The notes beneath the pieces were generated by a model that saw only the letters and a list, made by a program, of their open reading frames with translations, ran no database searches and had not been told where the DNA came from. From contig JBGAUT010000016.1 of the NCBI GenBank assembly GCA_044228505.1, positions 43,387-107,386 on the forward strand: a DNA stretch of 64,000 nucleotides, in the 5' to 3' direction. A program made the translations under genes and the position numbers. The DNA comes from Polyangia bacterium. GTDB lineage: Bacteria; Myxococcota_A; Polyangia; Palsa-1104; JAEUJZ01. Below are positions 2,214 through 20,250 of the stretch, piece by piece. Position 1 is the stretch's first letter. Every line of letters starts with the position of its first letter.

Positions 2214-2544
2214 GGTCAATTCCTACTGATCGATCCTGCAAAAATCCATACGATAGGTTCCGTCAGCACAGGTGGGCGAGTTTCCCGCAGAAGTGCTTCT
2301 CCGGAAACCGTTCGCGAAGATCCTCTGTCGTCAGTAGGGTTCCTCTTTTGCGGACTGGCAAGGGTTGCTGGCAAAACTTGCCGGGTTGCAAGTTTGGAGA
2401 TCCTTGCTAGCAAGCACTTTGCGTCGGGAACGTCTAACTTGGCTGCCCCATCGGAGCATCAGAGCGGTGGCACAGATTTCGCTTTTGAATCTACTTGTCC
2501 TCCATCGCTTACCAATCCTTAGTGACTTGAAAGGGACCGCTACC

Positions 2545-4407
2545 ATGGCCAAGAGAACACCGATCCTGACCTGCTTCGGACTACTCCTTTGCACTGCAGC
2601 AGCTGGATGTTCTGCCTCGTCGAGTGGGGCGGATGCAATTGCTCCGGTGAATTCCTCCAGCACTGCCGACCGGGCCATCGCGGAGGCAGACATCATTGCG
2701 CTTGATAGCGGCAGGCTCTATGCACTCTCTGCGGCAGGGACGGTCTCTGTGGTAGACGTTTCAGTTCCTAGTCAGCTAGCGCTGCTTGGACAAACGAGAA
2801 TGGCGGGTGAGCCGTTTGAGATGTACCGCAGGGGTGATTTCCTGATCACCATGTGGAATGGATCGTTTTCCGCAACTGGAACCGCGAATCCACCGCTCCC
2901 CGAGCCAAGCAGCACTCGCTATGTTCCACCGCCTCCCCGCGATCCGAACTCCGGTGCTGCGGTCGTGGTGCTCGACGTTCGCGATCCGTCACGAATTCGT
3001 CCGGTGGCAACGTTTCCAGTTCCCGGCGAGTTAGCCGATTCTCGAATCGTGGGCGATGTGTTGTACCTTGCGACCTACCAAAACGCCAAGTGTTACAATT
3101 GTGGTGATACCCAGCGTACTGTGGTTACCAGCTTCGATGTGAAGAACACTCTGTCGCTTCGTCGGGTCGACCAGGTTGTCTTTAAGAGCAATGCACCAGA
3201 GTCTTTCAATTTACCCTGGGGTTCGAACTGGAAGCGGAGTCTGTTTGTCACCAATGAGCGTCTCTACGTTGGCGGACATGCTGACCTTGACCCGCGTCTG
3301 TACGGAGATTCCGCTCAAGCGGCAAAGGAAGGAATCATCGACGTACTTGATGTGACGGATCCCGGAGGTCGACTACAACTTGGCGCTCGGATTGAAGTGG
3401 CTGGAGCGGTACTCAGTCGCTGGCAAATGGAAGAGCGTGATGGTGTGCTGCGGGTCATTAGCCAGCGCGGAGCAGGGCGCACGGGAAATGGTCAGGGAAT
3501 GCCGCAGGTCGACACGTATTCGATCGTGAACACCAAGACCTATCTACCGCTCGGCCACACGTCGATCAAACTGCCTCGGCAAGAAGGTCTGCGCACCGTC
3601 CGTTTTGACAAAGATCGCGCCTATGCCATTACCTACAATCAGACCGATCCACTGTTTACCATCGATCTGAAGGATCCCGCTGTGCCCATGGTTCGGGGTG
3701 AGCTAACCATGCCAGGCTTTATGTACTACCTGGAACCATACGGAGATCGGTTGATTGGTCTGGGAGTCGACCGCGATGACCCGCGAGGAAGCCTGAACGT
3801 CTCTCTGTTCGATGTCAGCAACCTAGACCGACCAAAAATGATCAGCCGGGTTCCATTTGGTACTCGCTCTGTGGGCGAAGACTACGTGGTGATCAACTAC
3901 GAGCTGCCTGAAGATCAGGATCGAATTCAAAAGGCTTTTCGTGTGTTCCCAGATGGCCTCGTTGCCGTTCCCTACTCTGATGTGCGCACCTACTACTCCG
4001 GTGATACTTGTGATTCACTACGGAGTGGAATTCAGTTGATGGACTGGTCCGGAGATTCTTTGGTGAAGCGGGCATTCCTCCCTGTCAAAGGGAATCCTCG
4101 TCGAGCTATTGAGCTGGGAACCGAACTGCTGGCGGTGTCGGATGCTACGGTGAGCTCGTTCTCTTTGGTGGACCATGGCGTTGCCAAGAAGACCGCTGAT
4201 GTGACGATTGGAACCTGCACTCCGCGTGTTTTGCCTGAAAACTATGGTTTTGATGGAGAGGGAGACTACTACGGCTTCGGCCTGTTTGGTTGCACGGTGG
4301 GCGGTCCTACTGTACGGCCTGCACAAGGTGCGGGTGCCGCCGTAGTGTTGCTGTTTGGCCTCCTGCTCCGTTTGATCGCTCGTCGCAAGTCATCCCTCCG
4401 TGCTTGA
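2545..4407 (+). CDS. secreted beta-propeller-like lipoprotein with C-terminal MYXO-CTERM-like sorting tail
   Basis: ATG at 2545 gives MAKRTPILTCFGLLLCTAAAGCS, a lipoprotein signal. The C-terminus is GC...GAGAAVVLLFGLLLRLIARRKSS: Gly/Cys, a hydrophobic helix, then an Arg-rich tail. Confidence 0.6.
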   Translation: MAKRTPILTCFGLLLCTAAAGCSASSSGADAIAPVNSSSTADRAIAEADIIALDSGRLYALSAAGTVSVVDVSVPSQLALLGQTRMAGEPFEMYRRGDFLITMWNGSFSATGTANPPLPEPSSTRYVPPPPRDPNSGAAVVVLDVRDPSRIRPVATFPVPGELADSRIVGDVLYLATYQNAKCYNCGDTQRTVVTSFDVKNTLSLRRVDQVVFKSNAPESFNLPWGSNWKRSLFVTNERLYVGGHADLDPRLYGDSAQAAKEGIIDVLDVTDPGGRLQLGARIEVAGAVLSRWQMEERDGVLRVISQRGAGRTGNGQGMPQVDTYSIVNTKTYLPLGHTSIKLPRQEGLRTVRFDKDRAYAITYNQTDPLFTIDLKDPAVPMVRGELTMPGFMYYLEPYGDRLIGLGVDRDDPRGSLNVSLFDVSNLDRPKMISRVPFGTRSVGEDYVVINYELPEDQDRIQKAFRVFPDGLVAVPYSDVRTYYSGDTCDSLRSGIQLMDWSGDSLVKRAFLPVKGNPRRAIELGTELLAVSDATVSSFSLVDHGVAKKTADVTIGTCTPRVLPENYGFDGEGDYYGFGLFGCTVGGPTVRPAQGAGAAVVLLFGLLLRLIARRKSSLRA

Positions 4408-4546
4408 TTCTGCTCGCCGGTTTCAGCAGACCGGCAGCGCTTGCCTGGAAAATCAGCCACGATGACAGGCCGAGCCGCTTCACCGCTTCCATCGAATCTG
4501 CTCTAACGATATTGTCCGCGACACTGGCTCAACGTACAGTGCCGCC

Positions 4547-5659
4547 ATGTTGGAACTGCAACACACCGACAAAGCCGTTGAGAGCCCAGATTTGTCTCCG
4601 ATTTTCGTGATTGGAACGGGTCGATCGGGAACCACCCTGTTGCGGCAGATGTTGAACGCGCATCCCCGCATTCACATCACACACGAAGCTGCATTCTACA
4701 GCTATGCGCAGCACATGCCAGCGGGTTCATCCGTGGATGAATGGCTGGAGCGTTACTTCGAGACGTTCTCATTTGCGTGGATGCATTTGGATCCACGCGA
4801 GGTTCGCGAGGCGCTGCCAAGGGGTCTATCAAAGGACCAGATGCGCGAGGTGTATCTCACCATCATGAGACTGCAAGCGCGACAGCGGGGCAAGGTGCGC
4901 TTCGGTGAAAAGAATCCTCTCGATACCCACAATCTCCCGCGTATTTTTTCGGACTTTCCGGATGCCAGGGTGATCTGCATCATGCGCGATCCTAGACCGA
5001 CGGTACTGTCGTTCAATCGGATGCCATTTGGCACAACCAGTACGATGCTCAACGCGCAGTTGTGTCGCATTCAGTACGAACACATCAAGCCGTACCTGAA
5101 CCGTATCTTGGAAGTACGGCTGGAAGACCTAACTGCCGAGCCCATGCAGACCATGCGGTCCATCCTGCATTTTGTGGGCGAGCCGTGGGATGACGTGGTG
5201 CTTGATCATGTGAAGCACTCGCAGACCGATGATGTACCGCCACTGCCGTGGTTTGTTGGGGCAACTCAACGAGCACCGAATCAGCGTGAGAGCCGAGGCC
5301 GCGATGAGTTAGATCCGGTGTGGACCCGGATCGTCGAATGGGTGAATCAGGAATCGATGACCCACTATGGGTACGAACGGGCCGTGCTTGTGAAGGAACC
5401 GTCGCGTTGGGAGTATGTCTGGGCATTTTGCAAAGACATAAGAGGCATGGCGGAGGCTGCATATCGTCTGTTGTCCATGAAGCGGCTGCTCGATCGTCAC
5501 TTCCAAGGTCGTGAGCGACTCGACCCTCAACGCGGAATGGAAGAGAACGTGCAGCTTAACCCAGCAGCCTGGAGCAACTATCCACAGTTCGAGATGCCGC
5601 AAGTTCCCCGACCAGCGGCCCTCCTGCCCCGCACGATTCAAACGTCTCAAGGCCAATGA
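4547..5659 (+). CDS. sulfotransferase family protein
   Basis: N-terminal IFVIGTGRSGTTLL PAPS-binding P-loop typical of sulfotransferases; ~370 aa. Confidence 0.65.
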   Translation: MLELQHTDKAVESPDLSPIFVIGTGRSGTTLLRQMLNAHPRIHITHEAAFYSYAQHMPAGSSVDEWLERYFETFSFAWMHLDPREVREALPRGLSKDQMREVYLTIMRLQARQRGKVRFGEKNPLDTHNLPRIFSDFPDARVICIMRDPRPTVLSFNRMPFGTTSTMLNAQLCRIQYEHIKPYLNRILEVRLEDLTAEPMQTMRSILHFVGEPWDDVVLDHVKHSQTDDVPPLPWFVGATQRAPNQRESRGRDELDPVWTRIVEWVNQESMTHYGYERAVLVKEPSRWEYVWAFCKDIRGMAEAAYRLLSMKRLLDRHFQGRERLDPQRGMEENVQLNPAAWSNYPQFEMPQVPRPAALLPRTIQTSQGQ

Positions 5660-5726
5660 ATCGGTAAGGTAGCAGGGTTGTGCCATCGGAACTTCGGCTG
5701 AGAGGAGTCGAGAGGAGTCGAGAGGA

Positions 5727-7073
5727 ATGACGATGAAGAGCAGTCTGCAGCGAGCCGGATCACCGAGAAGTCTTCTATCGCAGCTTATTTCTGCACCTGA
5801 TTTGGTACAAACCGTGCGGGCGCTTCCGGCTCCGGCCTTTTCTGCTTTGATTCGACACGTTGGCGTGGAAGATGCGGGAGAGCTTGTCGCACTGGCGACG
5901 AAAGAGCAGCTCGTGACCGCGTTCGATGAGGATCTCTTTGTCAACACCCGGCCCGGCGAAAGGGAGACGTTCGATGGGGCCCGCTTTGCGGTCTGGCTTG
6001 AAGTCCTTCTCGAAGCTGGTGATGAGGTCGCTGCCCGTCGAGTTGCCGATCTTTCGGAAGACTTTGTGGTGCAGGCGATTTCAAGGCTCATCGTGGTACT
6101 GGATCATGATGCGCTGCTTGGCCGCATGAACGAACGAGGACGCGATGTAGAGTACGCAGACAAGGCGATCGAGCGTGCTCTGTCCGAGGAGATTGATGGG
6201 TATTTGCTGCTCTGTCGGGAGTACGATGGTTGGGACGCGGTGATGTCGCTCATCCTGGCGCTGGATCGGAATCAACGTGATTTTTTGGAACGGATCCTGA
6301 GCCGATGTGCAGCGCTGGCCAGTGGATACCTCGATGATCTAAGTGTGCTCACGGGCATATTGTCCGCAGAGGACTCGCTCAGTGAAGATGTCGAAGCTGA
6401 GCGTGAGGATCGTCGCAGCCAGCAAGGCTACGTAGAGCCTCGTTCCGCCCGAGCGTTCCTTGCACTTGCGAGGCAGCCCGGCGCTTCTGATCGAAAATGG
6501 AGCGAACGCGATCCGATGACGCAGTCCTATTTTCGTGAACTGGCGCGGGCCTCGGCGGCTCTCCCCACGACTGTGCCTTCGGTGGAATCGGCCTCTCCCA
6601 AACTCATGGCTTTGCTCGCTGAAGTTGGAGTTGTGCAGCGTGCACCAGGTCGTGCGTTACTCGGAGCCGCTGCTCCGACGTCGATGAATGCACAGAGTCC
6701 GCTGCTTGCGGCGTTGCAGCTACTGTTTGAACAGAATCCGGAGTGCTTCCATCTGCGAATGGAGGAACTGGCCTATCTTTCTAATGTCCTTGTGGCTGGG
6801 GCCAACAACAAGGGGGCTCGATTCCGTGCAGCGGAAGCGGCCGAAGCGGCGCTGGCGACCTGTCGTTTGGGGGCGCAACTGGTTCACGCGGAACGGAGCG
6901 ATGCTTCGCAGCGTTTGTCTCAGCCCGTGACACCGCAGGCCCTTTGTCAGGTGCTCAAGGCCTATGGTGCCGACCTGCTGTTTCGCAGAGCCAGCAGCAT
7001 GCTGGTCACCCATCATCCCCGCTCACCAGGATTCCTTCGATCTGAGGCAGAACTCGACGAACTGGTAAAATGA
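5727..7073 (+). CDS. hypothetical protein (448 aa)
   Basis: Long ORF with a triple GAGAGGAGTC repeat immediately upstream acting as an SD-like motif. No recognisable motif. Confidence 0.5.
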   Translation: MTMKSSLQRAGSPRSLLSQLISAPDLVQTVRALPAPAFSALIRHVGVEDAGELVALATKEQLVTAFDEDLFVNTRPGERETFDGARFAVWLEVLLEAGDEVAARRVADLSEDFVVQAISRLIVVLDHDALLGRMNERGRDVEYADKAIERALSEEIDGYLLLCREYDGWDAVMSLILALDRNQRDFLERILSRCAALASGYLDDLSVLTGILSAEDSLSEDVEAEREDRRSQQGYVEPRSARAFLALARQPGASDRKWSERDPMTQSYFRELARASAALPTTVPSVESASPKLMALLAEVGVVQRAPGRALLGAAAPTSMNAQSPLLAALQLLFEQNPECFHLRMEELAYLSNVLVAGANNKGARFRAAEAAEAALATCRLGAQLVHAERSDASQRLSQPVTPQALCQVLKAYGADLLFRRASSMLVTHHPRSPGFLRSEAELDELVK

Positions 7074-7096
7074 AGCTGTCTGAATCGTTGCTGTGA

Positions 7097-7711
7097 TTGG
7101 CAGAGTGGATTAGGCTACGGTCCACTTTGTCTGAACAGCGCTCAATCTCGCCCGATGAGATGTTTGACCTGCCGATCCGTCGTTACGACGGGGCAGTCTA
7201 CTTGGTAAGCACGCCGCAAGATCGTGAGCGAGCATTGGCCGACATCAGGACAGAGAGCGTAGTTGGTTTTGACACCGAGACACGACCTGCTTTTCGAAAA
7301 GGAGAGAGCTATCTTCCTTGCCTGGCGCAGGTTGCAACTGCACGAGCGGTCTATTTGTTCCAGCTTCAGCAGCAGGATTTTTCTGCGGAAATGCGAGAGC
7401 TACTGGCCTCCGAGCGAGTCGCCAAAGCAGGGGTTGCTCTGGCCAATGATCTTCGCGGGTTAAAGAAGCTGATCGAGTTCGATGCTCGATCCATCGTCGA
7501 CCTGGATCGGGTGGCGCGACACCATGGATTCAAGCAGCCGGGAGTGCGCAACCTCGCAGGTCTGCTTCTCGGTTTTCGGATTCCCAAAGGAACCAAGACT
7601 TCAAACTGGGCCGCACGACAATTGTCTCCCCAGCAGATTTTGTATGCAGCTACGGATGCGTGGGCGTGTCGGGAGCTATACCTTCGGTTCTGTGAGCTCC
7701 GCCTGGTCTAA
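7097..7711 (+). CDS. 3'-5' exonuclease domain protein (RNase D-like, DEDD family)
   Basis: VGFDTETRP (Exo I motif) and YAATDAWA (Exo III). Track start is TTG 7097; ATG 7160 (MFDLPIRRY) is an alternative start. Confidence 0.65.
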   Translation: MAEWIRLRSTLSEQRSISPDEMFDLPIRRYDGAVYLVSTPQDRERALADIRTESVVGFDTETRPAFRKGESYLPCLAQVATARAVYLFQLQQQDFSAEMRELLASERVAKAGVALANDLRGLKKLIEFDARSIVDLDRVARHHGFKQPGVRNLAGLLLGFRIPKGTKTSNWAARQLSPQQILYAATDAWACRELYLRFCELRLV

Positions 7712-7785
7712 GCCTGGCCATTAGGTGCCCAACTTGGCCTGAGAATCCCATTGTTTGGACGCGGACCGTATGCGATCCTAGCGAG

Positions 7786-8961
7786 GTGAGACTCTGGGGA
7801 CCATACAAGCCCACACCTCCTAAAACGCAGTGGCGACTGGTGATCTCGGAGCACGGCTCGCGACGCTCGGTCTGTTTCAATTCAGAAACCGAGGCACTGC
7901 ATTTTCGAGAGAATCTGCGGGCACAAGCGGCGGATCTTGCAACTCATTCGCTGACCGCAAGACAGGCGATTGAAGAGTACATCTCGGAAAAAGAGCGAGA
8001 GTGTGTGGCGGTCTCTGTGCTTACGGTGAGGGAACGCCTGATGCGATTCCTTCCGCTCGATACGCCGCTCCGTTACTTCGATGACGTGCTTGCTCAGCAG
8101 ATCTATGATCGCGAGGTCCAGCGGATTACCAAGCGAAGGAAGCCTGTGGCTGCCGCAACCCATCGCGCAACCCTTCGAACCACGAAAGAGTTTTGGCGAT
8201 GGTTGGTGATGCGGAAGTACGTGAATCACAATCCCTGGGCGCAGATTCTACCTGTAGGAAGACTGAATCATGGCAAGCCGCAGCCCACCATTGGCCAGGC
8301 GCAGAGGCTGGAGTCCTATTTGGTGGCTGGTGCGCAGGCGAATGAGGGCAAGCTGGCGCTGCTTCTGCAACTATATTGCGGACTCCGCAGCGGGGAAGTA
8401 TTGGCACTGAAGGTTCGAGACATCGAGCAGGTCGTCATTGCAGGAGAACGGGTGATCCAAGTCTGCGTCGACCGTGGAAAAACCAAGCATGCGCGGCGAG
8501 CGGCTCGCGTCGCACCCCGAGTCGGAGAACTCCTCATTGATTACATCAAGGGTCGACCAGCGGAGCAGAGAGTGTTTGCTGCCGATCGCTCCGCTCCGCC
8601 GAAAGGTGCATGGCTTCACAAGAGACTGGCTCTGATCTGTCAGGAGCTCGGATTGCCACAGTACTGTCCGCATAGCCTGCGCGGCCTCAACGCAACGATT
8701 GCGCTGGAGGGCGGTGCTACGATGGAAGCCATTGCCAAGGTTCTCGGTCATGGCAGCACTGCCGTGACGGCCAAGCACTATGCCAAGCCGGACAGCGTCT
8801 TAAATGCCAGCCTTCGAAGGGTTGCGGAAGTCCTGTCGAGTGCGTCTTCCTACGTGGAAGAGTCGGTGGTATCCGAAGAAGCGGCGGTGTCTGCGGTTGT
8901 GAGTTCGCTCAGTCCCGGTCAGCTCGCGCTGCTGCGCAAGGTAATCCTTCAGCACGGTTGA
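7786..8961 (+). CDS. site-specific tyrosine recombinase / phage-type integrase
   Basis: C-terminal catalytic domain with LRSGEVLAL (Arg), HSLRG (H-x-x-R), LGHGS (His) and HYAKP (Tyr nucleophile). Starts at GTG 7786. Confidence 0.75.
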   Translation: MRLWGPYKPTPPKTQWRLVISEHGSRRSVCFNSETEALHFRENLRAQAADLATHSLTARQAIEEYISEKERECVAVSVLTVRERLMRFLPLDTPLRYFDDVLAQQIYDREVQRITKRRKPVAAATHRATLRTTKEFWRWLVMRKYVNHNPWAQILPVGRLNHGKPQPTIGQAQRLESYLVAGAQANEGKLALLLQLYCGLRSGEVLALKVRDIEQVVIAGERVIQVCVDRGKTKHARRAARVAPRVGELLIDYIKGRPAEQRVFAADRSAPPKGAWLHKRLALICQELGLPQYCPHSLRGLNATIALEGGATMEAIAKVLGHGSTAVTAKHYAKPDSVLNASLRRVAEVLSSASSYVEESVVSEEAAVSAVVSSLSPGQLALLRKVILQHG

Positions 8962-9147
8962 CCCTGCGTGTTCAGCTACTGCCGCAACCTCGCTGTCGGA
9001 TGGCGCATACAATGTCATGACGCATCGTGCATGTCAGACGGCAGTGACTGCGATGCCGAACGCAAAGTATCAGAGCTTCCATCGATCTGCTTGTAACATA
9101 GAGCGTGAGAGTGCGCGCCACGGGCCGCCCTATCCGGGTCAGCCATC

Positions 9148-9588
9148 ATGCAAGTCGAATCACCAGAAGCACGGACGTGGATCGGGCAGATCATCGGGAA
9201 CCATCGCCTGGTCCGTGTGCTGGGACGTGGCGGTATGGGAATGGTGTTCGAAGCGGTTCACGAGGGAGTGCTAGGGCGGGCAGCGATCAAGATTCTGCGT
9301 CCCGATGTCACCAGCCGAACGGATGTGACGACTCGCTTCTTCAATGAAGCCCGTGCTGCCAATGCCGTCCAGCATCCAGGCATTGTGCGCATCTTCGATT
9401 GTGGATTTACGGAGTCCGGGGTCGCCTATCTGTCGATGGAGTTCTTGGAAGGGGAGTCGCTTCGATCGCGACTGGCCAGGGTGAGGCAGCTACCCACCAA
9501 GACCGCGCTGCGAGTAGCACGTCAGATTGCCTCAGCGCTTGCAGCCGCGCATCGAGTGAAAATCATCCATCGAGATCTCAAACCCGAT
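9148..9588 (+). pseudogene. Hanks-type Ser/Thr protein kinase, N-terminal fragment (subdomains I-VIb) interrupted after HRDLKPD
   Basis: LGRGGMGMVF (Gly loop), AAIKIL (Lys), HPGIVRIF, SMEFLEGESL, IIHRDLKPD. The frame then reads 10 unrelated codons to a stop at 9621. Confidence 0.7.
9581..9588. repeat. 8-bp direct repeat AACCCGAT (left copy) flanking the insertion in the kinase gene
   Basis: An identical octamer recurs at 13847-13854, exactly where kinase homology resumes. Confidence 0.6.
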
Positions 9589-9754
9589 CATCTTCGCTTT
9601 CGTCTGGCGGCGTTGGGATAGGTTCCATTGTGCGAGTGATAGGGCAGGGAACAAAGTTCGGAAACGATCTGCGCGCTCTCGGTCTGGCACAATTGCGTAG
9701 AGGTCACCGATTGTGGCATCAAAGTACGGTACTAAACCAACGATGGAGACAAAG

Positions 9755-11218
9755 ATGAGTGACACCAAGAAGCTGACTACCGCAGCGGGGGCACCAGTTG
9801 TCGACAACCAGAACTCGATGACCGCCGGTCCGCGAGGACCTCTTTTGATGCAAGACATCTGGTTCCTGGAGAAGCTTGCGCATTTCGACCGCGAAGTGAT
9901 TCCAGAGCGTCGCATGCATGCCAAGGGGTCGAGTGCGTATGGATCATTTACCGTAACACACGACATCTCTAAGTACACCCGAGCGAAGATATTCGCTCAG
10001 GTTGGCAAGAAGACCGATCTGTTTGTTCGCTTCTCCACCGTCGCTGGAGAGCGAGGTGCTGCGGATGCAGAGCGCGACATTCGGGGCTTTGCGATCAAGT
10101 TCTATACCGAGGAAGGAAACTGGGATCTGGTTGGCAACAACACGCCGGTATTCTTCCTTCGTGACCCTCTCAAATTTCCAGACCTAAACCATGCGGTGAA
10201 GCGCGATCCGCGAACCAACTTGCGCAGTGCTCGCAACAATTGGGACTTCTGGACCTCGCTACCGGAGGCGCTGCACCAGATTACCATGACCATGAGTGAG
10301 CGAGGAATTCCCTATTCCTATCGACACATGCATGGATTTGGGAGTCACACCTTCAGCTTGATCAACTCCCAGAACGAGCGCTTCTGGGTGAAGTTCCATC
10401 TGCGGACGCAGCAAGGGATCAAGAATCTGTCTGATGCAGAGGCCGAGGCGATCATTGGCAAGGATCGCGAGAGTCACCAGCGAGATCTGTTTGACAGCAT
10501 TGAGAGACGGGACTTTCCTCGCTGGACGCTGTTCATTCAGGTGATGCCGGAACGGGAAGCCGCCACGTGTCCGTACAACCCGTTTGACCTTACCAAAGTC
10601 TGGCTGCACAAGGACTATCCGCTCATCGAAGTGGGCGTGATGGAGCTGAACCGCAATCCCGAAAACTACTTTGCAGAGGTTGAACAGTCGGCGTTCAATC
10701 CGGCGAACGTGGTGCCCGGAATCGGTTTTTCACCAGATAAGATGCTTCAGGGACGACTCTTTTCGTACGGCGATGCCCAGCGCTATCGGCTTGGGGTGAA
10801 TCATCAGTCCATTCCGGTGAATGCGCCTCGCTGTCCGGTCCATAGCTACCATCGTGATGGCGCGATGCGAGTCGATGGAAACTTCGGAGGTCAGCTTGGC
10901 TATGAACCGAATAGCTATGGACAGTGGCAACAGCAGCCGGGCTTTGCGGAACCTCCGCTCTCGCTGGAGGGGTCCGCAGATCACTGGAACCATCGTCAGG
11001 ATGAAGACTACTACTCCCAGCCAGGCTTGCTGTTCCGGCTCATGACGGGAAACCAGCAGCAGACACTGTTTGATAACACTGCGCGAGCGATGGGTGATGC
11101 ACCAAGAGAGATCAAGCTTCGTCACATCGGCAATTGTCTGAAGGCCGACCCCGCGTATGGAGCAGGTGTCGCAAAGGCACTCGGCCTGCCTCTGAGCGAA
11201 ACGCGCAGCTCATCCTAA
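9755..11218 (+). CDS. katA: monofunctional heme catalase (clade-3-like)
   Basis: [63 protein letters not shown] and the heme-ligand region [22 protein letters not shown] precedes ATG 9755; an in-frame ATG at 9713 is also possible. Confidence 0.85.
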
Positions 11219-11239
11219 CGCCCGTGGATCGACTCCGCA

Positions 11240-13699
11240 TCAACACTTGATCCGTTTCATATCGGGATCGTACAGCGGTCGCAGAGACGCGATCGCTGGA
11301 TAGCGCTGCCCGGCAATGTCTACTTCCCACATGCCTCGATCGAGATACTCTTGATCGAGCGCTTGTCCCGCTTCGATCATGGCCAATCCGACGGCTCCTC
11401 CGATGGTGAAGCCATACGAGGCGGCGCGAATGTATCCGACCGGGTGGCCGTTGCGGTAGACAATCTCAGCATGGAACATCAGTGGCTCCGGATCTTTCAC
11501 CAGCACTTGCACCAGGCGTCGCGTTAGCGGTCCTTCTGCTTTTTTGGCGAGCACTGCATCGCGTCCCAGAAATCCACCCGGCTTCTTTAGATCTACCGCA
11601 AAGCCAAGACCTGCCTCCAAGACCGAGTCGGTGTTGTCGATATCGTGACCATAATCACGGTATCCCTTTTCCATGCGCAAGCTGGCCAGCGCCTTGAGTC
11701 CGGCATGTCGTAAACCGAATTCTGATCCGGTTTCTACAATCCGATCATAGACATGGGGGGCTTGCTCGGAGGGGATGTAGAGTTCGTAGCCCAGCTCACC
11801 CAGATAGGTGATGCGGATACAGAGTGCCCGTGCAAAGCCGATGTCGATTTCGCGGGCGGTGCGGAATGGGAATGCCGTATTGCTAAGATCGGTGGTGGTC
11901 ACCCGTTGCAGCAGCTCTCGCGAGCGAGGTCCTTGAATGTTGATCTGCGCGTAGCCAGAGGTCACATCGGTTACAAAGGCGTGTGCGTGCGCCGGGACAT
12001 GGCGACGCATCCAGGTCTCTGCATGCCGATGAGCGGTGTCTGAGGCTACGACCCAGTATCGCTCATCATCGAGCTTGGTAACGGTCAGGTCCGCTTCGAG
12101 CGTGCCGCCCTCGTTGAGCCACTGCGTGTAGGTGATAAGCCCGCTTGGTCCGTCGACTTGGTTGGCCGACAGATAATTGAGAAGGGCTCCTGCGTCCCGA
12201 CCTTGCACCAAGAACTTCGCCATGAACGACATGTCCATCAAGATCACGCCTTCACGGGTCGCTTGATGCTCTGCTTGCCAGTAGGGAAACCAGTTCTGTC
12301 TGCCAAAGGACAATCGCTCGACCTTTGGCTCGATGCCAGGCGGCGCATACCAGTCCGGTCCTTCCCAACCACTGACGTCCTTAAAGTATGCGCCCTGCGC
12401 GGCCAGCCGATCATAGATGGCCGATCTCTTACAGCCGCGTGCGGTCTGCATGGAGCGCGTAGGATAGTGGCACTGATACACCATTCCAAGCGATTCCACC
12501 GTACGGGTGCGACGGTACTCCGGGTTCGACTGGTATGTGTGGAAGCGATCGATGTGCATGCCGGTGACATCACAGTCGGGTCGACCGTTGATGATCCAAT
12601 GGGCCAACACCCGTCCCATGCCACCACCCGTGATGATTCCGATCGAGTTGAGTCCGGCAGCCACAAAGTAGTTCTTTAGTTCTGGTGCTTCTCCGACCAC
12701 CGGACGCAGATCCGCGGTGAAGCTCTCCGGTCCGCAGAAGAATTTTTTGACTCCTGCATCTAGCGAGATGGGAATTCGCTCCATTGCCTTTTGCAGGTAT
12801 GGACCCATTCGCTCCCAGTCCGGACTGATCTCTCCAAAAGAAAAGTCGTCCGGAATACCACCGACTTTCCACGGAGCACAGACTGGCTCGAACAGACCGA
12901 CAAGCAGGCCGCCGACTTCCTCTCGATAGTATCCGTAGGAGCTGGGGTCTTCGAGAACCGGCAGAGAGGCGGTGAGCTGGGGGATCTTCTCTGTGATGAG
13001 ATAGTAGTGTTCTGCAGCCTGCAATGGAACGTTGACCCCGGCTTGGGCTCCGAGCTGACGTGCCCACATTCCGGCGCAGTTTACCACGTATTCTGCTTCG
13101 ATGTTTCCGTAGGGAGTCTGGACGCCAGTGACCACACCACGCTTGGATAGGAGTCCGATGGCAGGCACTCCTTCCAGGATGGTTGCACCTTGCATTCGGG
13201 CCCCTTTGGCAAGTGCCATTGTGATGTCAACGGGATTGGCACGGCCATCTTCCTTGACGTAGAAACCAGCCAAAATGTCGTCGGTGCGGGCCAATGGAAA
13301 GAGCTGTTCTACTTCCTTAGCGGAAATCTCATGGACATCCACTCCGCAGTGTCGATTGAACGCAGAGACACGCCGGTATTCCTCCAATCGGTCTTCATCC
13401 GCTGCGACTTCGATGAATCCGACCTGCTTGAATCCGGTCGATAGTCCAGTTTCTGCTTCGAGCCGCAGGTACAGATCGCGGGAGTACTTCCTCATCTCAG
13501 TCGATGTCTCAGAGGTCGAACCAAACGTCACGATGAGCCCTGCCGCATGCCAGGTCGTGCCAGAGGTGAGCCGATCCCGCTCGAGTACGACTACGTCCTT
13601 CCATCCCATGTGGGCCAGGTGGTATGCGACGGAGGTTCCGATGATTCCACCGCCAATGACGACAACGCGAGCGCGAGCAGGAAGGTTTGTGGGGTACAT
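11240..13699 (-). CDS. FAD-dependent oxidoreductase fused to a GcvT-like folate-binding domain: dimethylglycine/sarcosine dehydrogenase or dimethylglycine oxidase family (819 aa)
   Basis: N-terminal VVVIGGGIIGTSVAYHL Rossmann dinucleotide motif and TTWHAAGL (the covalent-FAD His region of this family). The C-terminal ~350 aa resemble the aminomethyltransferase (GcvT) fold. The size matches DMGDH/DMGO. Confidence 0.8.
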   Translation of the reverse strand: MYPTNLPARARVVVIGGGIIGTSVAYHLAHMGWKDVVVLERDRLTSGTTWHAAGLIVTFGSTSETSTEMRKYSRDLYLRLEAETGLSTGFKQVGFIEVAADEDRLEEYRRVSAFNRHCGVDVHEISAKEVEQLFPLARTDDILAGFYVKEDGRANPVDITMALAKGARMQGATILEGVPAIGLLSKRGVVTGVQTPYGNIEAEYVVNCAGMWARQLGAQAGVNVPLQAAEHYYLITEKIPQLTASLPVLEDPSSYGYYREEVGGLLVGLFEPVCAPWKVGGIPDDFSFGEISPDWERMGPYLQKAMERIPISLDAGVKKFFCGPESFTADLRPVVGEAPELKNYFVAAGLNSIGIITGGGMGRVLAHWIINGRPDCDVTGMHIDRFHTYQSNPEYRRTRTVESLGMVYQCHYPTRSMQTARGCKRSAIYDRLAAQGAYFKDVSGWEGPDWYAPPGIEPKVERLSFGRQNWFPYWQAEHQATREGVILMDMSFMAKFLVQGRDAGALLNYLSANQVDGPSGLITYTQWLNEGGTLEADLTVTKLDDERYWVVASDTAHRHAETWMRRHVPAHAHAFVTDVTSGYAQINIQGPRSRELLQRVTTTDLSNTAFPFRTAREIDIGFARALCIRITYLGELGYELYIPSEQAPHVYDRIVETGSEFGLRHAGLKALASLRMEKGYRDYGHDIDNTDSVLEAGLGFAVDLKKPGGFLGRDAVLAKKAEGPLTRRLVQVLVKDPEPLMFHAEIVYRNGHPVGYIRAASYGFTIGGAVGLAMIEAGQALDQEYLDRGMWEVDIAGQRYPAIASLRPLYDPDMKRIKC

Positions 13700-13846
13700 A
13701 AAAGGGAGAATAATCTCAGGAGACCTGTGCTCGGCAAGCCCTTGTGTCTGAGCACCGCACGAAGGAACCCATTCTTCCTTTCCCCGCTCATTCCTTGTTC
13801 CTCGTTCTCCGGAGATTTCTCGTCCAATCCTGCCGATTTGTGAGTC

Positions 13847-13854
13847 AACCCGAT
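13847..13854. repeat. 8-bp direct repeat AACCCGAT (right copy)
   Basis: Identical to 9581-9588; encodes the PD of HRDLKPDN in the resumed kinase frame. Confidence 0.6.
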
Positions 13855-15357
13855 AACATCATGCTGGTTCCTGACCAGGACTTCCCTGGTGGAGAGCGGG
13901 TTAAGATCCTCGACTTCGGAATTGCCAAGATGGCCGAGGGCTTAAGTGCTCAGCCACTTCGCACCAAGAGCGACGTACTCATGGGCACTCCGACCTATAT
14001 GGCACCGGAGCAGTGTCGTGGTGCGAAACTCGCGACCGACCGATCCGATGTGTATTCACTCGGGGTCATTTTGTATCAGATGCTTGCGGGGTATCCGCCA
14101 TTTTTGGGGGCCTCGATGGGCGACTTGATCGCGATGCATTTGATGGATGAGCCGCCACGACTAACGGACGCCGTGCCTGAGATCAGTCCCAAGATTGCAA
14201 AGCTCGCCTATGCGATGCTCGCCAAAAAGCCTGATTCTCGACCCTCGATGGAGAAGGCACAAAAGACGCTGCTCCGATTGGAAGAGGAAGCCCAACTGGC
14301 ACCGCCGCTACCGGCAGTGCAGCGAGACATCGAGACGTCGTACGGTGACTCTCAGCACGGCACTGTGGATGTTCCGGATGGGCATCCGAACAGGATTCCT
14401 GCGGATGCAAACGAGCTGAAGGTGCCAGTACCCAATCGGGAAGGAGCGACTGACAAACGTCCGTCGGAAATGAAAGCCGCAGGGTCCTCGCGTCCGTTGC
14501 CGAGCCGTATCGTAACAGACTCTCGTCACGTACATATTCCCAAGCGAACACTTCAAGTCATTATCGCGGCCTTCGTTGCCAGTACACTACTGGTGACGAC
14601 TGGGATTCTGCTGGGAACACAGGCCCGGCGTCCGATAGACCGCAGTGCACGCTCGGTTCTTCCGGAACCGGAACACAGAGACGATGTTCCAGCGTCCTCG
14701 GTTGCACCGCAATCGGCCAGACCAACACCGGAAGTCGCGGCCAGTAGGCCCATTCCAGCGATTCCAGGGGATGTCCCTCCTTCGAGCAAAGCAGACAAAG
14801 GGGGCGCTCCACATCGTGAGCCCACCTTGACCGCCAGCAAACATGTAGACAGCCCGAACGCGACAGGCAGCAAGGTTCATTCTAGTGGTGCGGCGATTGA
14901 AGAGAAGCCGGTCGCTATGGTTGAGGAGAAGCCGGTCAGTGTGGTGGAGCAAAAGCCCCCCACGCAGAGCCCGTCCTCGGTCAGTCCTGAGCAAGCTGTT
15001 CCGGCACAGCCTCCGACGGTGATTGCGCCTCCTCCTCAGGTTGCTCCCGTTCCTAGACCTGTTCCTGTGCCGGAGCGTACTGTCGATGATCCGTTTGATC
15101 CGCTGCGCACCGCAGAGGACTTCATCTTGCAAGGGAACTATCGTCGCGCAATGGATCTGGCCACGCAGTTTGGAAAGCAAGATCCGATGCGTGCTTGGGA
15201 AATCTACGGCCGTGCAGCGTGTGGGATGCGGCTGCAGGACCGGGCGAGTCGGGCGATGCGTGAACTGCAGCAGCGGCATGAAGACCGCCGCATTCAGTCT
15301 CTGCTCGCGTATTGCCGACTTCACAAGCTACCGCTATCTGCGCCTGACTCGCAGTAG
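13847..15357 (+). pseudogene. Ser/Thr protein kinase C-terminal fragment (subdomains VIb-XI) with Pro-rich linker, one TM helix and a small C-terminal helical domain
   Basis: PDNIMLV...ILDFGIAK...GTPTYMAPEQ...DVYSLGVILYQMLAGYPPF, then a P/A/S-rich region, the TM helix IIAAFVASTLLVTTGILLG, and a C-terminal TPR-like tail. The nearest in-frame upstream Met (13744) lies in non-kinase sequence. Confidence 0.65.
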
Positions 15358-15752
15358 TTCGTTCCTAAGGCTTGCGATCAGTGCCCGAGCGTTGTCCTTC
15401 TGCAATCGGCAGCCCGGCCATCTGCTCCTTGCTCATGGCTCCCGAGTAATCGCTGCTTTGGCCATACGGTCGGTCCAGTCGGTGTAGTTTCGCCGTCCTA
15501 TGGTCTAGGCCAGACCGCGACCGTGAAATTGGGCACCAGCACTGGGCTGAGTGTTCTGCAGGTCATCACGAGATCTCATCCGGTTCTCTCCCCGTCGACG
15601 CGAATCGAGTATCAGCACCAAGCAGCCGAAGTTGCGTAGATTCTCAGTAGTTTGGCCGACTCAGGTGATTGCAGAGCGGCAGTGTGTCGCCACTTCCTGA
15701 ACAGTTCCCCTGCAGGATTTGAGGGCGATTTTCTCGTCGCAGGTATTCTTGC

Positions 15753-17801
15753 CTAATGTCCTCGATGGACGATTCCCTGGCTGTGGGCAGTGTCTAGGAC
15801 CGAACAGATCTGGCGGGTCAGTGTAAGGACTCGTGCGATAGGCAGCGGTCGTGGCGCTTTGCCTTTCGGACTGATGATCTCATCGAGCGACTGCCCGTCG
15901 ATGAACTCCATCACCAAGTAGAACAAGGCACCACTCACATTGCCGTGATCGTAGATAAAGACGCTGTTTGGGTGATTGATTTGAGAGGATAGTTTGGCTT
16001 CCCGCTGAAACAGTTCGATGGCATCCGGGGCGACCATTGCTGACGGTGAGAGTACTTTGACCGCTGCTTCCCTGCCGAGCTCCGTGTGGCGAGCCTTGTA
16101 GACCATGCCCATCCCGCCTTCTCCCAGTCGGGCGTAGCAAGTGTACTGACCCACCGTGAAGGGATCGATCTCGCCTCTGCTGGACTTGGCTTCCTCGGCT
16201 TTGGTCGTGGGAAAGGTGTCGGCTTCGCTCCCAGCTCGCTGGGTCTTGGCATTCTGTAACACCAGCAGGCGGTCGCGCCGAATCACCCACAGCAGCAGAC
16301 CGGCACCCAGGGCCGCTGCCAGCGCGATGATGAGCAGTACGATTCCCAAGAACAGCTTCTTCTTGTCTGCGTGCGGAGCAGGTTGTTGCTGCGCCGTCTC
16401 GGGGGAAACGCTCCCGCCCCCGCCCGACCCAGGACTCGGGACCATGAGGCGGTTCTGCGTGGACTCAGCTTGAGCAGGTTCCGCTGGTGGCTCCACTTGA
16501 TCGGATTTTTGCTTTGATGACTCGGTGAGCTTGATGCGCTCATCGTCGTCGCGGCTGTCTGGACCAGGACCACGTACTCTCTGTTTCTTTCCTGCTTGTG
16601 CGGTGCTGGGCGCGGTCTTCGCGGGGGCCTTCTTCAGTTGTTTGGCTTCGGCAGGTACTTGCTTGTGCCCCGTGACCATCGGTCTCGGGGGCGCGGCGGC
16701 ACCAGGGGCGCTAGGGGCTCTCGGTGCTTCAGGGGGCGGGCTTTCGATGGCAAATGAATCAGTTTCGCCTGCGCGTGAAGGTGGTGCCGCACCTTGCTGG
16801 ACGGACGCGGCTTCTGCTCGTGGGCGCGCAGGGGCTCTCGTTGTGCTTTTGGGTTTGAACTTGCGTTTGATGGGTGCGGTGGTCTTTTCTTCTTCTGGTG
16901 CTGGCTGTGCTTTCTTGTCGGCGAGAGGCATCGCCTCCTCAGACGCCTTCCCGATAGGACGAGAAGCCTCCAGCGCGGGCGGCGGGGCTCCGGGTTGGAC
17001 TGCGGCGGGGGCACTGGCTTGCGGTGCGTGCTCGGGGCTGCTGCGCAGAAGCAGCAATGAGCCCGAGGCCAGCAGCAGCACCACCGCAACAAGCAGCGCC
17101 GCGACAGCAGATTTGCTCTTGCGGGCCTGCGCTGGCGAAGCTGGACCTTTTGAACCCTCCGCAAACGCTGAAGCCCGCATCGGAGAGCTCGGTACGGACC
17201 TGGCCGCGCTGTCCTCTTGTGATGCCGACGATGCAGCTGGGACCGCGTGCTGTGCGGTATCGAGCAGCTTTGCAACCAGCTCGTCCAACGATCGTGGTCG
17301 TGCGGCAGGTTGCTTATCGAGCGCATGCAATAGCGTCTGCGCAAGCTCGGCGGACAGCTCGGGTCGTAGGCTGCGCGGATTCTCGGGCCGCTCTAGCAGA
17401 ACCTTGATCCGGATGGCGGCGGGGCTGCTTCCGGCAAACGGAGGCTGTCCGGTTAGCAGATGGTAAGCGACCGCAGCGACGTGGTAGACCGTGCTCGCCA
17501 CTGCCTCGGGCTTGCCTGCAAAGACCTCTGGCGCGACGTAGGCTGCGACCAAATCGACAGATGGATCTTTGGCTGCCTCGGGCCCAGCAAGGGTGATGGC
17601 AGAAAGCTCACCGATGGATTCGTCCCCGGTCGCTGAGGTGACCAGTTTGACCTGCGATGGGTGAACAAGCCGTGCCTTGCCATCGGTAAGCTGCGATGAC
17701 AGCGTCTTACATAGCTCGCTGACCAGACGAAGTACACGCGGAATATCGTGACTTCCGGCCAGCGAAGCCATCGTTTGCGCTTCGCTTTCGCTGCTCGACA
17801 T
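15753..17801 (-). CDS. anomalous 682-aa ORF: degenerate kinase C-lobe (pseudokinase-like) at the N-terminus, Pro/Ala-rich region, one TM helix, then a canonical kinase N-lobe ending ...GIVHRGH-stop
   Basis: The C-terminal part reads LGEGGMGMVYKARH...AVKVL...HPNSV...VMEFIDGQSL...IVHRG then stop, and nothing kinase-like follows in any frame. The N-terminal part reads ARLVHPSQVKL (catalytic D, K and N all replaced), then YVAPEV and LLTGQPPFAG. A possible TM helix is LFLGIVLLIIALAAALGAGLLLWVI. Confidence 0.5.
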   Translation of the reverse strand: MSSSESEAQTMASLAGSHDIPRVLRLVSELCKTLSSQLTDGKARLVHPSQVKLVTSATGDESIGELSAITLAGPEAAKDPSVDLVAAYVAPEVFAGKPEAVASTVYHVAAVAYHLLTGQPPFAGSSPAAIRIKVLLERPENPRSLRPELSAELAQTLLHALDKQPAARPRSLDELVAKLLDTAQHAVPAASSASQEDSAARSVPSSPMRASAFAEGSKGPASPAQARKSKSAVAALLVAVVLLLASGSLLLLRSSPEHAPQASAPAAVQPGAPPPALEASRPIGKASEEAMPLADKKAQPAPEEEKTTAPIKRKFKPKSTTRAPARPRAEAASVQQGAAPPSRAGETDSFAIESPPPEAPRAPSAPGAAAPPRPMVTGHKQVPAEAKQLKKAPAKTAPSTAQAGKKQRVRGPGPDSRDDDERIKLTESSKQKSDQVEPPAEPAQAESTQNRLMVPSPGSGGGGSVSPETAQQQPAPHADKKKLFLGIVLLIIALAAALGAGLLLWVIRRDRLLVLQNAKTQRAGSEADTFPTTKAEEAKSSRGEIDPFTVGQYTCYARLGEGGMGMVYKARHTELGREAAVKVLSPSAMVAPDAIELFQREAKLSSQINHPNSVFIYDHGNVSGALFYLVMEFIDGQSLDEIISPKGKAPRPLPIARVLTLTRQICSVLDTAHSQGIVHRGH

Positions 17802-18950: not shown

Positions 18951-19214
18951 TCAGTGCAGGTTTGGGAGCGCTGACCAAACCTGCGTCGAGAATACCACCA
19001 GCTTGGATACCAGATACGGACCAGTCACAAACAGGGCTACCATTCCCAATAGCAACCGCACGGCGACCGGCAGCGAGGAGTCCGTGATGCCCATCCGCGC
19101 TTGGAGCCACGACGTGACAACGGCGGATAGCACCGCGACCAGCAACACAGGTAGGCTGCACAGCACAGCCAGCCACAGACCCGATGACAGCAGCGGCAAT
19201 AGCGACTCGCTCAT
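18951..19214 (-). CDS. fliQ: type III secretion / flagellar export apparatus protein SctS (FliQ family)
   Basis: 87 aa with two TM helices. PVLLVAVLSAVVTSWLQARMGITDSSLPVAVRLLLGMVALFVTGPYL aligns with the FliQ core (LLVALVTGLIISILQAATQINEMTLSFIPKI...AGPWML). A 4-bp overlap with the upstream gene indicates coupling. Confidence 0.75.
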   Translation of the reverse strand: MSESLLPLLSSGLWLAVLCSLPVLLVAVLSAVVTSWLQARMGITDSSLPVAVRLLLGMVALFVTGPYLVSKLVVFSTQVWSALPNLH

Positions 19215-19864
19215 GAGTACCCCAGAAGCAGGCCGCGATACAGCAGCGTGAATCCATCGCAGACCAGGAACAGCAGCAGCTTAAACGGCAGCGTCACCGC
19301 CCGTACCGACAGCCCACCTAGCTGAAGTCCCGACAGTAGCAGAGCCGCCAGCAGATCGAGAACCAGGAAGGGAAGCAGCAGCACAAAGGCAAGCTGAAAC
19401 GCACGTCGCAGCTCTCCCAGCAGGAAAGCCGCCACCAGCACTGGCAGTTCATTTGGTTCAAGCGTCGCTCCGTGCCGCTGGGCCAGCTTCTGGGTCAGCG
19501 CCTCGACCTGCGCTTTGTCGCCAGCAGGTGTGTGCTCTATCAAAAACTGTCGAAGCGGAGCAGTGCCAACCTGAACCAAGTCTGCCGCCGTCGCTGTCGG
19601 CGGTGAGGTGTTCACCTCGGTAAGGCTGCGCTTGATAAGCGGAGACATGGACAGCGTTGCCAGCGTGAGTCCGAGCAACACAGTCACCAGCAGTGGTGGG
19701 ACTCCTCCTCCGAGACCTCGTCGGAGAACCTGCAGCACGATCGCAACTTTGACGTACGCGAGCAGCGATAGCAGCACAAACAGCAGCAGTGGTAGAAGCG
19801 TCCGTAACAGATCCGGCTGCGACAGCATTAACGCGTGGCTCCGTTTATGCCCGATTGTGGCCAC
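19211..19864 (-). CDS. fliP: type III secretion / flagellar export apparatus protein SctR (FliP family)
   Basis: LPFKLLLFLVCDGFTLLYRGLLLGY matches the FliP signature LPFKLMLFVLVDGWQLL; there are also a signal-like N-terminus and VLLLPFLVLDLLAALLLSGLQ. Starts at GTG. Confidence 0.8.
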   Translation of the reverse strand: MATIGHKRSHALMLSQPDLLRTLLPLLLFVLLSLLAYVKVAIVLQVLRRGLGGGVPPLLVTVLLGLTLATLSMSPLIKRSLTEVNTSPPTATAADLVQVGTAPLRQFLIEHTPAGDKAQVEALTQKLAQRHGATLEPNELPVLVAAFLLGELRRAFQLAFVLLLPFLVLDLLAALLLSGLQLGGLSVRAVTLPFKLLLFLVCDGFTLLYRGLLLGYS

Positions 19865-20250
19865 TTCGCGTCAAGGGATGGCCAGGCCGGTATCGTGACG
19901 CGCTCTGGTTCTGCGTGGTTCTCCTGGGTCGGTTCAAGCGCTGGCGGGTCCAGCTCACAAATCGTCGTCAATCCTTGAGGTGACGCACCAAGCAAAAGTG
20001 AGCGCGAGCCGACCTTCACCAGGAACAGCGAGTGACTTGCCGAAAGTCGTCGGTGCTCCACGACGTGGAGCAGCCCCTTAGTGGCTGACTGCTGAGTTCG
20101 TCGCCACAGCCACAGCACCGCAACCATGCCAAGCACCACGCAACAGGCGCGCCCGAGCAGTCCCAGCACATGCCAGGACTCCATCCCTGCGGCATCGGAA
20201 AGCTGAGCCAGCATACTTTGATGAGAAGCTAGTGACCCATCCGGTGTCAA
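19828..20250 (-). CDS. fliO: FliO-like protein (single-TM flagellar/T3SS export accessory)
   Basis: TM helix VVLGMVAVLWLWRR. LHVVEHRRLSASHSLFLVKVGSRSLLLGASPQGLTTICEL aligns with the E. coli FliO core LKISASASLGARERVVVVDVEDARLVLGVTAGQINLLHKL. Overlaps the fliP start by 37 bp; start codon uncertain. Confidence 0.5.
   Translation of the reverse strand: MTPDGSLASHQSMLAQLSDAAGMESWHVLGLLGRACCVVLGMVAVLWLWRRTQQSATKGLLHVVEHRRLSASHSLFLVKVGSRSLLLGASPQGLTTICELDPPALEPTQENHAEPERVTIPAWPSLDAKWPQSGINGATR

Follow-up and report, generated by a model that had tools for sequence, protein, structure and literature searches.

A probable 23.3-kb tyrosine-integrase element in the catalytic-loop codons of a Hanks-type kinase gene of an uncultured Myxococcales bacterium

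To our knowledge, the sites of most known integrative elements are tRNA genes or one of a few genes for sporulation or heterocyst formation. Elements which disrupt protein-coding genes include skin in sigK, SPbeta in spsM, the nifD, fdxN and hupL elements of Anabaena and the comK prophage of Listeria. Here we describe a locus on contig JBGAUT010000016.1 of a Polyangia bacterium, where two Ser/Thr kinase genes are interrupted beside a tyrosine integrase gene. The whole stretch analysed, 64,000 bp in length, is called the window, and unlabelled positions refer to it. We consider it likely that the region forms the right-hand end of a tyrosine-integrase element of 23.3 kb which is integrated via a 19-bp core in the HRD codons of a chromosomal kinase gene (kinase B), that the kinase carried by the element (kinase A) was split later, and that HRD codons have been hit recurrently. 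The region belongs to an element of an uncultured Myxococcales bacterium which is gene-disrupting and has an unusual target, common to paralogues.

Gene-disrupting integrative elements and the principle of 'regulated gene integrity' were surveyed by Mageeney et al. 2020 (PMC7192596), and among them the hrpB-inactivating islands carry a different copy of the gene they inactivate (PMC7192596). The present locus is similar in that an element with an integrase has split a protein-coding gene, so that indispensable parts of one domain come to lie apart, the gene would be made whole again by precise excision, and the att sites share a short identical core. As in the hrpB islands, the element carries a gene (kinase A) of the same kind as the one it interrupts. 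It differs in the target, which here is the catalytic-loop codons of a Hanks-type Ser/Thr kinase (the word 'kinase' is absent from the main text of PMC7192596), in that the same motif has been struck in three or more kinases which are not orthologues, the element's own being one of them, and in the cargo, which is a chemosensory operon and not phage genes. Since the integration is not function-preserving and both states coexist, the kinase B system would fit the regulated gene integrity class; the coexisting states and the purifying selection described below are at most indirect signs of a putative regulated excision that changes a phenotype. In a literature search no earlier report was found of a fully documented integrative element in the catalytic loop of a eukaryote-like Ser/Thr kinase.

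Three other kinds of systems are worth comparing. With the lambda-type systems (lambda, HP1, P4-like islands) the element shares an R..HxxR..H..Y recombinase, boxes on both attP arms, a shared core and a circle; unlike them it has no tRNA target, its integration does not preserve the function of the target, its integrase is distant and no excisionase was recognised in the element. The cis-mobilisable elements (CIMEs), which are flanked by att sites, were described for ICESt1 and ICESt3 of Streptococcus thermophilus. A 4.26-kb cassette in kinase A and a 1.75-kb insertion in a related genome (L020) resemble CIMEs in having no recombinase, short direct repeats and arm-related ends. However, they do not stand in tandem at the parent att site but in a separate kinase gene, at a position shifted by 14 nt; furthermore, the relationship of the ends is weak and comes from short boxes, and a mobilisation in trans is presumed. 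Inteins and homing-endonuclease introns target conserved active-site codons. Here too the insertion is found in the most conserved, catalytically essential codons, which assures a target in many hosts and paralogues, but there is no RNA or protein splicing, the gene is physically broken and the integration is recombinase-based and involves several genes.

Attachment sites and states of the element

Independent metagenome contigs were retrieved from ENA, JGI and Logan by exact-protein look-up, and those with att sites are 99.3-100% identical to each other and to the window. The core CAGGGAATCGTCCATCGAG (15761-15779, minus strand, which is the kinase sense) encodes Q-G-I-V-H-R and is present as a single copy in the window; the exact overlap of the window and the contigs L004 and L001 is 19 bp. 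The empty site, attB (B-arm, core, B'-arm), was found in L004 (ENA ERZ27257534) within an intact kinase B of 831 aa. The match of this contig to the window extends from 22965 to 15761 and gives way to the C-lobe of kinase B; the gene order of the contig is cysE, uninterrupted kinase B, a methyl-accepting chemotaxis protein (MCP) gene and a FIST gene. The attP site (P, core, P') is found in L001/L181, and L001 comes from the same sample as L004. L001 matches 5907-15779 and continues with a 7.5-kb chemosensory operon; together with L181 it links position 15779 to this upstream segment and then to position 1 of the window. The hybrid sites are attR (B, core, P'), seen in the window (15761-15779) and in L007, and attL (P, core, B'), seen in L179 (Logan), L182 (JGI) and L180, where the arm on the chemosensory-operon side is followed by the core, by ACCTAAAGCC... 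of the kinase B C-lobe and then by the MCP gene. The core is identical in all four kinds of sites; attL and attR are direct repeats of it, and it is single in attB. As read from these contigs, the reaction attB × attP ↔ attL + attR is documented base for base.

The main element comprises 23,294 bp including one core, that is 7,515 bp upstream of the window and window 1-15779, so that window 1-15760 corresponds to its right-hand 15.76 kb. L179 is collinear with window 1-12125 and extends upstream to attL, thus the window represents the integrated state. The excised state was recognised as follows. The reverse complement of L001 and L181 together reconstruct exactly a 23,602-bp ENA contig. Both ends of this contig are the two ends of one insertion sequence (IS), inserted in the DUF6178 gene at window positions 5907-5911 with inverted repeats TGATCCGATTTGGT and the 5-bp duplication CAGCT, and therefore the contig closes on itself via a repeat which the assembler could not cross. 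The IS starts with an IS3-like OrfA and is present in the circular (L001/L181, ENA) and in an integrated variant (L182, JGI), while it is absent from the window. In a lineage of about 88% identity two contigs of 18,922 bp (L010, k141) and 18,557 bp (L011, k119) are circular permutations of each other and have the same gene order without the catalase cassette; from the positions of the genes a circle of about 18.78 kb is expected, and this equals 18,922 bp minus the terminal overlap of 141 bp. In a lineage of about 81-85% identity L013 is the attP form. Its integrated counterpart, L012, has a truncated kinase B of 682 aa and is the GTDB contig CALLYL010000722.1 of a metagenome-assembled genome (MAG) labelled 'uncultured Myxococcales'. 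Full-length circles were assembled in four samples. The excised circle with attP was found in silico, and a tandem array is a formal alternative reading of such contigs. The short-k Logan contigs end 0 or 11 nt past the core, as is expected of an assembly-graph branch when two states coexist in the sample. The assembled sequences show that a circular or excised form occurs naturally, as does the empty site, and at times the two are met in one sample.

In attP (L001:7860-8010) the sequence CAGGG(G)AA is repeated directly three times, once about 31 nt ahead of the core, once where the core begins and once 49 nt past it, and TCCATCG is found twice, 17 nt apart; these repeats may be candidate binding sites. 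Neither a dyad symmetry nor inverted sites of the core type could be made out convincingly by eye around the 19-bp core, and therefore no crossover position is assigned.

The integrase (373 aa) is encoded on the plus strand at 7840-8961, the start placed by gene callers, within a mechanically called open reading frame (ORF) of 7786-8961. It matches Pfam Phage_integrase PF00589 (E=1e-13) and the PHROG integrase family phrog_1 (E=9e-31), and all catalytic residues of a tyrosine recombinase are present (R183, H278xxR281, H304, Y314). Its Xer-like matches are weak, the NCBIfam Xer models score far below cut-off, and the best solved structure is XerA with E=1e-4. Judged by these matches it appears to be a generic family member, only distantly related to characterised ones. 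At E<=1e-10 there were 31 relatives. Kinase targeting as a trait of the wider integrase family was considered as well and was dropped, as it is unsupported outside the clade of 78-100% identity, where two relatives were inspected.

The preliminary description of the locus, drawn from the window itself, had reported an integrase with no adjacent tRNA and no recognisable att site. The integrase is there and no tRNA gene was found in 1-24000, but the break of kinase B is itself the att junction. It had also asked for a comparison of the integrase with known families and for its att core: the core emerged, while the integrase could be placed only as a generic Phage_integrase/phrog_1 member. An unrelated prophage bounded elsewhere, to which the integrase might have belonged, is not what was found, since the gene sits in an element that ends at the break of kinase B. 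The identity of this element as a prophage was rejected: there were no Pfam or PHROG matches to virion, packaging or lysis genes among the element genes, and IMG/VR contained neither a match to the attR/attP pattern nor a relative of the integrase. Conjugation genes were likewise missing from the Pfam and PHROG results for the element genes.

The interrupted kinases B and A

The ORF of the truncated kinase B (15753-17801, minus strand, 682 aa) ends with ...QGIVHRGH-stop, that is, the N-lobe of a kinase is cut at the HRD codons. Integration splits the gene between HR and D into an upstream part of 680 codons, which remains at attR (15780-17801, minus strand), and a C-lobe of 149 codons, which is located at attL, 23 kb apart and beyond the window. 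The element supplies only Gly-His-stop (ORF end at 15753), so the target domain is disrupted and kinase B is not restored.

In the window the kinase B part consists of a C-lobe-like pseudokinase domain (about 17265-17801), a transmembrane (TM) segment, a low-complexity region, a second TM segment and the N-lobe (about 15762-16166). The N-terminal C-lobe-like domain has no N-lobe of its own, and HRD is replaced by HPS in it. The complete architecture, in which a pseudokinase C-lobe, a TM segment, about 260 aa of low complexity and another TM segment precede the C-terminal Hanks kinase domain, is unusual yet conserved. Every orthologue of kinase B, either intact or interrupted (P0122-P0131 and others), starts with MSSSE... 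and has the same N-terminal domain, and in the orthologue alignment the low-complexity region between the TM segments is fast-evolving. The ratio of nonsynonymous to synonymous substitution rates (dN/dS) is 0.17-0.24 for the N-terminal domain versus 0.36-0.52 for the linker; by this measure purifying selection acts on the domain, and it is no decayed remnant. Since this domain is present in all kinase B orthologues, the locus contains two interrupted kinase genes and not three fragments. In case of the N-lobe the dN/dS values were even lower, 0.008 between the window and L012 and 0.04 between the window and L020, all three alleles being interrupted. Such values are incompatible with long-standing pseudogenes. 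The strong purifying selection on the interrupted kinase B leads us to infer that the insertions are recent, recurrent or reversible.

Kinase A is carried by the element, between the integrase gene and attP. Its N-terminal half, from the N-lobe to ...IIHRDLKPD, is encoded at 9148-9588 (plus strand, Pkinase profile positions 4-127), and its C-terminal part, which comprises the C-lobe from NIMLV..., a TM segment and a Pro-rich tail, at 13855-15357 (plus strand, Pkinase profile positions 126-259); the mechanical ORF of the latter already begins at 13744, within the intervening DNA. Rejoining the two parts gives a stop-free ORF of 647 aa. This protein is covered over its entire length (100%) by the intact orthologues P0001, P0002 and P0003 (631-647 aa), and there are full-length orthologues with 88% and 81% identity. 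In the four loci with an empty site (L010-L013) the part that aligns to the window stops at 9588 and starts anew at 13847, the two segments overlapping by 8 bases, and each locus carries a single AACCCGAT. Consequently 9589-13846, a stretch of 4,258 bp, has been inserted, and AACCCGAT (8 bp, the K-P-D codons) has been duplicated, the left copy being at 9581-9588 and the right one at 13847-13854 (both plus strand). These are the only two copies of the octamer in the window where 1.5 are expected; such a count is unremarkable, hence the significance of the octamer comes solely from its position at both junctions. The break lies 14 nt downstream of the position equivalent to the crossover in kinase B (CGAG/ATCTCAAACCCGAT/, with slashes at the two positions).

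This cassette has no integrase. It encodes a catalase (9755-11218, plus strand) and a fusion of an FAD oxidoreductase with GcvT, similar to dimethylglycine/sarcosine dehydrogenases (11240-13699, minus strand), both recognised by Pfam. No recombinase or transposase was present in it, a repeat search and a local alignment of the two ends revealed no terminal inverted repeat, and there were no further copies of its ends within the window. Read inward, the right end contains GGACGAGAAATC (13814-13825) at +22 and GCGGGGAAAGG (13777-13787), and the left end contains GCAGGGAAC (9644-9652). The cassette was found only in the lineage of 99.8% identity (window, L001, L179), and the dN/dS of the kinase domain of kinase A against intact orthologues is 0.035-0.05; on this sequence evidence the insertion into kinase A is recent. 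As for the donor, the exact-protein look-up returned only the L001 contig, and in the one JGI metagenome scan made with the dehydrogenase the relatives had at most 83% identity, none of them beside this catalase and none with the cassette ends.

Of the kinase fragments listed in the preliminary description, the kinase split by an insertion is kinase A with its 4,258 bp and four empty-site loci, the fragment truncated at the HRD codons is the minus-strand ORF ending in QGIVHRGH-stop, and the two breaks at the HRDLKP codons are indeed 14 nt apart in the kinase frame. The count of three disrupted fragments does not hold, as the pseudokinase C-lobe and the truncated N-lobe form one ORF, which is seen in L004 and in the orthologues.

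Recurrent insertions at the HRD codons and their origin

Five kinase B orthologues were found in GTDB. In all representatives whose contigs include the site (L019, L020, L023) the kinase B gene is broken at HR(D) or shortly past it, at residue ~682; the contig of L022 ends at the cut site and L021 is too short to tell. The gene is also cut at HR(D) in the metagenome lineages P0128, P0130 and P0131, with differing neighbouring DNA, while it is intact in several other lineages (L004, P0122, P0126, P0127). The truncated proteins end as HRGLVRLPS-stop in L016/L020, HRDLR-stop in L015 and HRDLKPH/KITPVEK in L014, and the DNA past the break differs among L016/L020, L015 and L014. Directly after the truncated kinase B of L020, a Myxococcales MAG, an ORF with a Pfam Profilin match (E=7.5e-19) was observed (L020:12064-12612, plus strand, JAEUKA010000040.1); profilin is a eukaryotic actin-binding protein family, rare in bacteria.

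Kinase A was hit more than once. In L180, which is 99.75% identical to the window, it is cut as ...ATCATCCATCGAG/TATTTTTTACGTAATTTTTCCGACGGAAAAT..., at the same position as kinase B, so near-identical strains carry two different insertions in this gene (window/L179 versus L180). The L180 contig ends 104 bp into the inserted element. At this junction (L180:17119-17223, Logan DRR545331) kinase A is broken right after CATCGAG by an AT-rich element end with boxes of the family type. A third kinase, kinase C, is split in L020 (L020:14867-18192) as HRDLKPD/ENLFL by 1.75 kb flanked by AGCCAGA, and the rejoined sequence reads HRDLKPENLFL. Close to either end of this insertion, at +12 and +22, box A (see below) is present in inverted orientation, and the inner ORFs are without Pfam match. 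On comparison of these sequences, recurrent insertion into the HRD-loop codons is supported for this group of genomes.

The P' arm of the main element (15680-15760, minus strand, adjoining the kinase B N-lobe) contains box A, CGACGAGAAAAT (15728-15739), at +22 and box B, CAGGGGAAC (15704-15712), at +49, and the arm with both boxes is conserved in the 88% and 81% lineages. A query made from the P' arm alone was compared with the first 45 nt of nine independent other ends, allowing up to 3 mismatches. Box A matched five of the nine ends at +12 to +22, against a background of 0.014 per end; the positive ends were those of L014 and L180, both ends of the kinase C insertion in L020 and the right end of the window cassette. 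In an all-against-all comparison of 12 ends, 15 of the 66 pairs had scores reached by at most 7 of 300 shuffles, whereas about 1.5 pairs were expected. This test ties the P' arm to the L020 kinase C ends, L014, L023 and L180, and the score of the P' arm with the right end of the kinase C insertion was above all 300 shuffles. We conclude from these alignments that most of the inserted ends are probably distantly homologous.

The 19-bp core is identical in attP and in the catalytic-loop codons of kinase B (Q-G-I-V-H-R/D), and the contigs show that the element has recombined via it, reciprocally and site-specifically, with a disrupted kinase B and an excised circle as the result. In the mechanism which we propose the integrase of the element would perform this reaction. 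In a second hit the integrase-less catalase/dehydrogenase cassette has split the element-borne kinase A 14 nt further along the motif. The cassette and similar small insertions may be satellites mobilised in trans by integrases of this family. Tyrosine recombinases usually have an overlap of 6-8 bp, and the 7-8-bp duplications may be the crossover (overlap) region, while the subterminal boxes may be binding sites of the recombinase or of accessory proteins. If the element family recognises the conserved HRD-loop coding sequence, as we suppose, this would explain the repeated hits in several kinases and lineages.

A rival cause along the lines of the preliminary description is recombination, either homologous or illegitimate, between Ser/Thr kinase paralogues at the HRDLKP DNA, with the integrase as a bystander. 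The breaks are indeed found where the DNA of the kinase domain is most conserved, in three different kinases, and the suggestion that the HRD codons are a recurrent target is borne out by the hits in relatives. The DNA joined to each break, however, is not kinase sequence, which speaks against the paralogues as partners; kinase B has a full reciprocal set of att sites with the 19-bp core and a circular form, kinases A and C carry simple insertions with 8- and 7-bp duplications and have intact empty-site alleles, and the integrase sits within the element whose end is the break. We therefore regard this explanation as very improbable. Still less credence can be given to an assembly artefact, in which contigs misjoined at the conserved kinase motif would give rise to spurious breaks and a spurious circle. 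The data come entirely from metagenome assemblies and several contigs end exactly at the core, but a core of 19 bp is much shorter than k=141, k=119 and even k=31, identical junctions were obtained from three assemblers and sources and at least 8 samples, L012 and L179 span entire junction regions, and orthologous junctions occur in three lineages of 81-99.8% identity.

A more serious competitor concerns the insertions in kinase A and in L020, which might have been made, independently of the integrase element, by a DDE transposase acting on a non-autonomous transposon (similar to a miniature inverted-repeat transposable element, MITE, or to a mobile insertion cassette, MIC) that prefers AARCCNGA. 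The 8- and 7-bp duplications resemble target-site duplications, the L020 insertion has its inverted box A near both ends (+12, +22) and neither insertion holds an integrase. When the window cassette was examined as a DDE transposon or MITE, the 8-bp duplication was present, but only subterminal inverted boxes were seen, without a true terminal inverted repeat and without a transposase. Moreover, box A matches the P' arm of the integrase element at equal distance from the junction, the shuffle result for the P' arm and the right L020 end speaks against it as well, the duplication lengths also suit the usual overlap of tyrosine recombinases, and the integrase element itself strikes the same motif. 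On balance we hold the transposase to be an unlikely origin of these insertions.

The integration of a tyrosine-integrase element in kinase B, with related insertions at the HRD codons of other kinases, is thus preferred, and the observations which weigh against it or limit it are collected here. The kinase B site is interrupted in at least five lineages with different adjacent DNA, and an integrase is visible only in the window, 88% and 81% lineages, where independent events and old inheritance look alike; at the junctions of L015, L016/L020 and L023 no integrase lies within the DNA at hand. In case of the window cassette the left end is without box A, the right end matches with 3 mismatches, and the 8-bp duplication fits a transposase equally well, so the sequence support for placing the 4.26-kb cassette in the same end family is moderate. 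An nhmmer profile of the P' arm gave the right end of the L020 kinase C insertion as the sole top non-self match, with E=0.28; this profile is too weak, and hence the relatedness of the ends is argued from the position-specific box test and the pairwise shuffle test. The two integrase relatives that were inspected, L017 and L018 (43-48% identity), have no kinase nearby, thus kinase targeting may be confined to a narrow clade. That the integrase of the element catalyses attP × attB is deduced from its presence in the element and from the att structure, and no replication genes were recognised on the element despite the full-length circular contigs.

Cargo, surroundings and meaning of the element

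ORFs of the window were called mechanically and labelled by Pfam scans; for the cargo at 4-4407 the Pfam labels were taken from the identical genes in L179/L181. All cargo genes named here with coordinates are on the plus strand: the C-terminus of CheB (4-504), CheR (494-1849), a response regulator (1830-2213), a beta-propeller protein (2467-4407), a sulfotransferase (4547-5659), a DUF6178 protein (5727-7073) and a protein with a 3'-5' exonuclease domain (7127-7711). With kinase A they make up the cargo together with the genes on the 7,515 bp upstream of the window, namely CheW, two unknown ORFs, DUF4154, MCP, CheA and CheB, which end at attL. A complete chemosensory operon is carried by the element (window 1-4407 and upstream; L179:1050-10384), consisting of CheW, MCP, a CheA-receiver hybrid, CheB, CheR and the response regulator. 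The chromosomal target, kinase B, itself precedes an MCP gene and a FIST-domain gene.

Past kinase B in the window a hexapeptide acetyltransferase gene (cysE-like) and FliO/P/Q-type genes follow. The FliQ/FliP/FliO-type export-apparatus genes (18951-20250, minus strand) adjoin the cysE-like gene upstream of kinase B, and this synteny is retained in every lineage examined (L004, L012, L014, L015). Base composition is uniform across the studied region. Besides kinases A and B no kinase-like sequence was found elsewhere in the 64-kb window, which means that the window alone cannot support a kinase census.

As regards annotation, 'truncated kinases' ending at HRD in these MAGs are better read as att junctions than as pseudogenes. 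A group which is hard to manipulate may gain genetic tools from the integrase and its 19-bp core, as they are a candidate for a new recombinase/att pair. For the biology of these bacteria, a single short motif that is hit in non-orthologous kinases by different DNAs suggests that the conserved active-site codons of a large paralogous family can serve as distributed attachment sites, and the element offers a concrete route for shuffling kinase repertoires and chemosensory modules in myxobacteria. Myxobacteria possess very many Hanks-type kinases. As a tentative and so far doubtful extension, a family of tyrosine-recombinase elements and their satellites might home on the near-universal HRDLKPxN codons of these kinases, whereby insertion and precise excision would switch individual kinases off and on reversibly, each element bringing a replacement kinase and a chemosensory pathway. 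If this were true, it would amount to a mobile rewiring of signal transduction, and nested hits, such as the kinase of an element struck by a satellite, would be its by-product.

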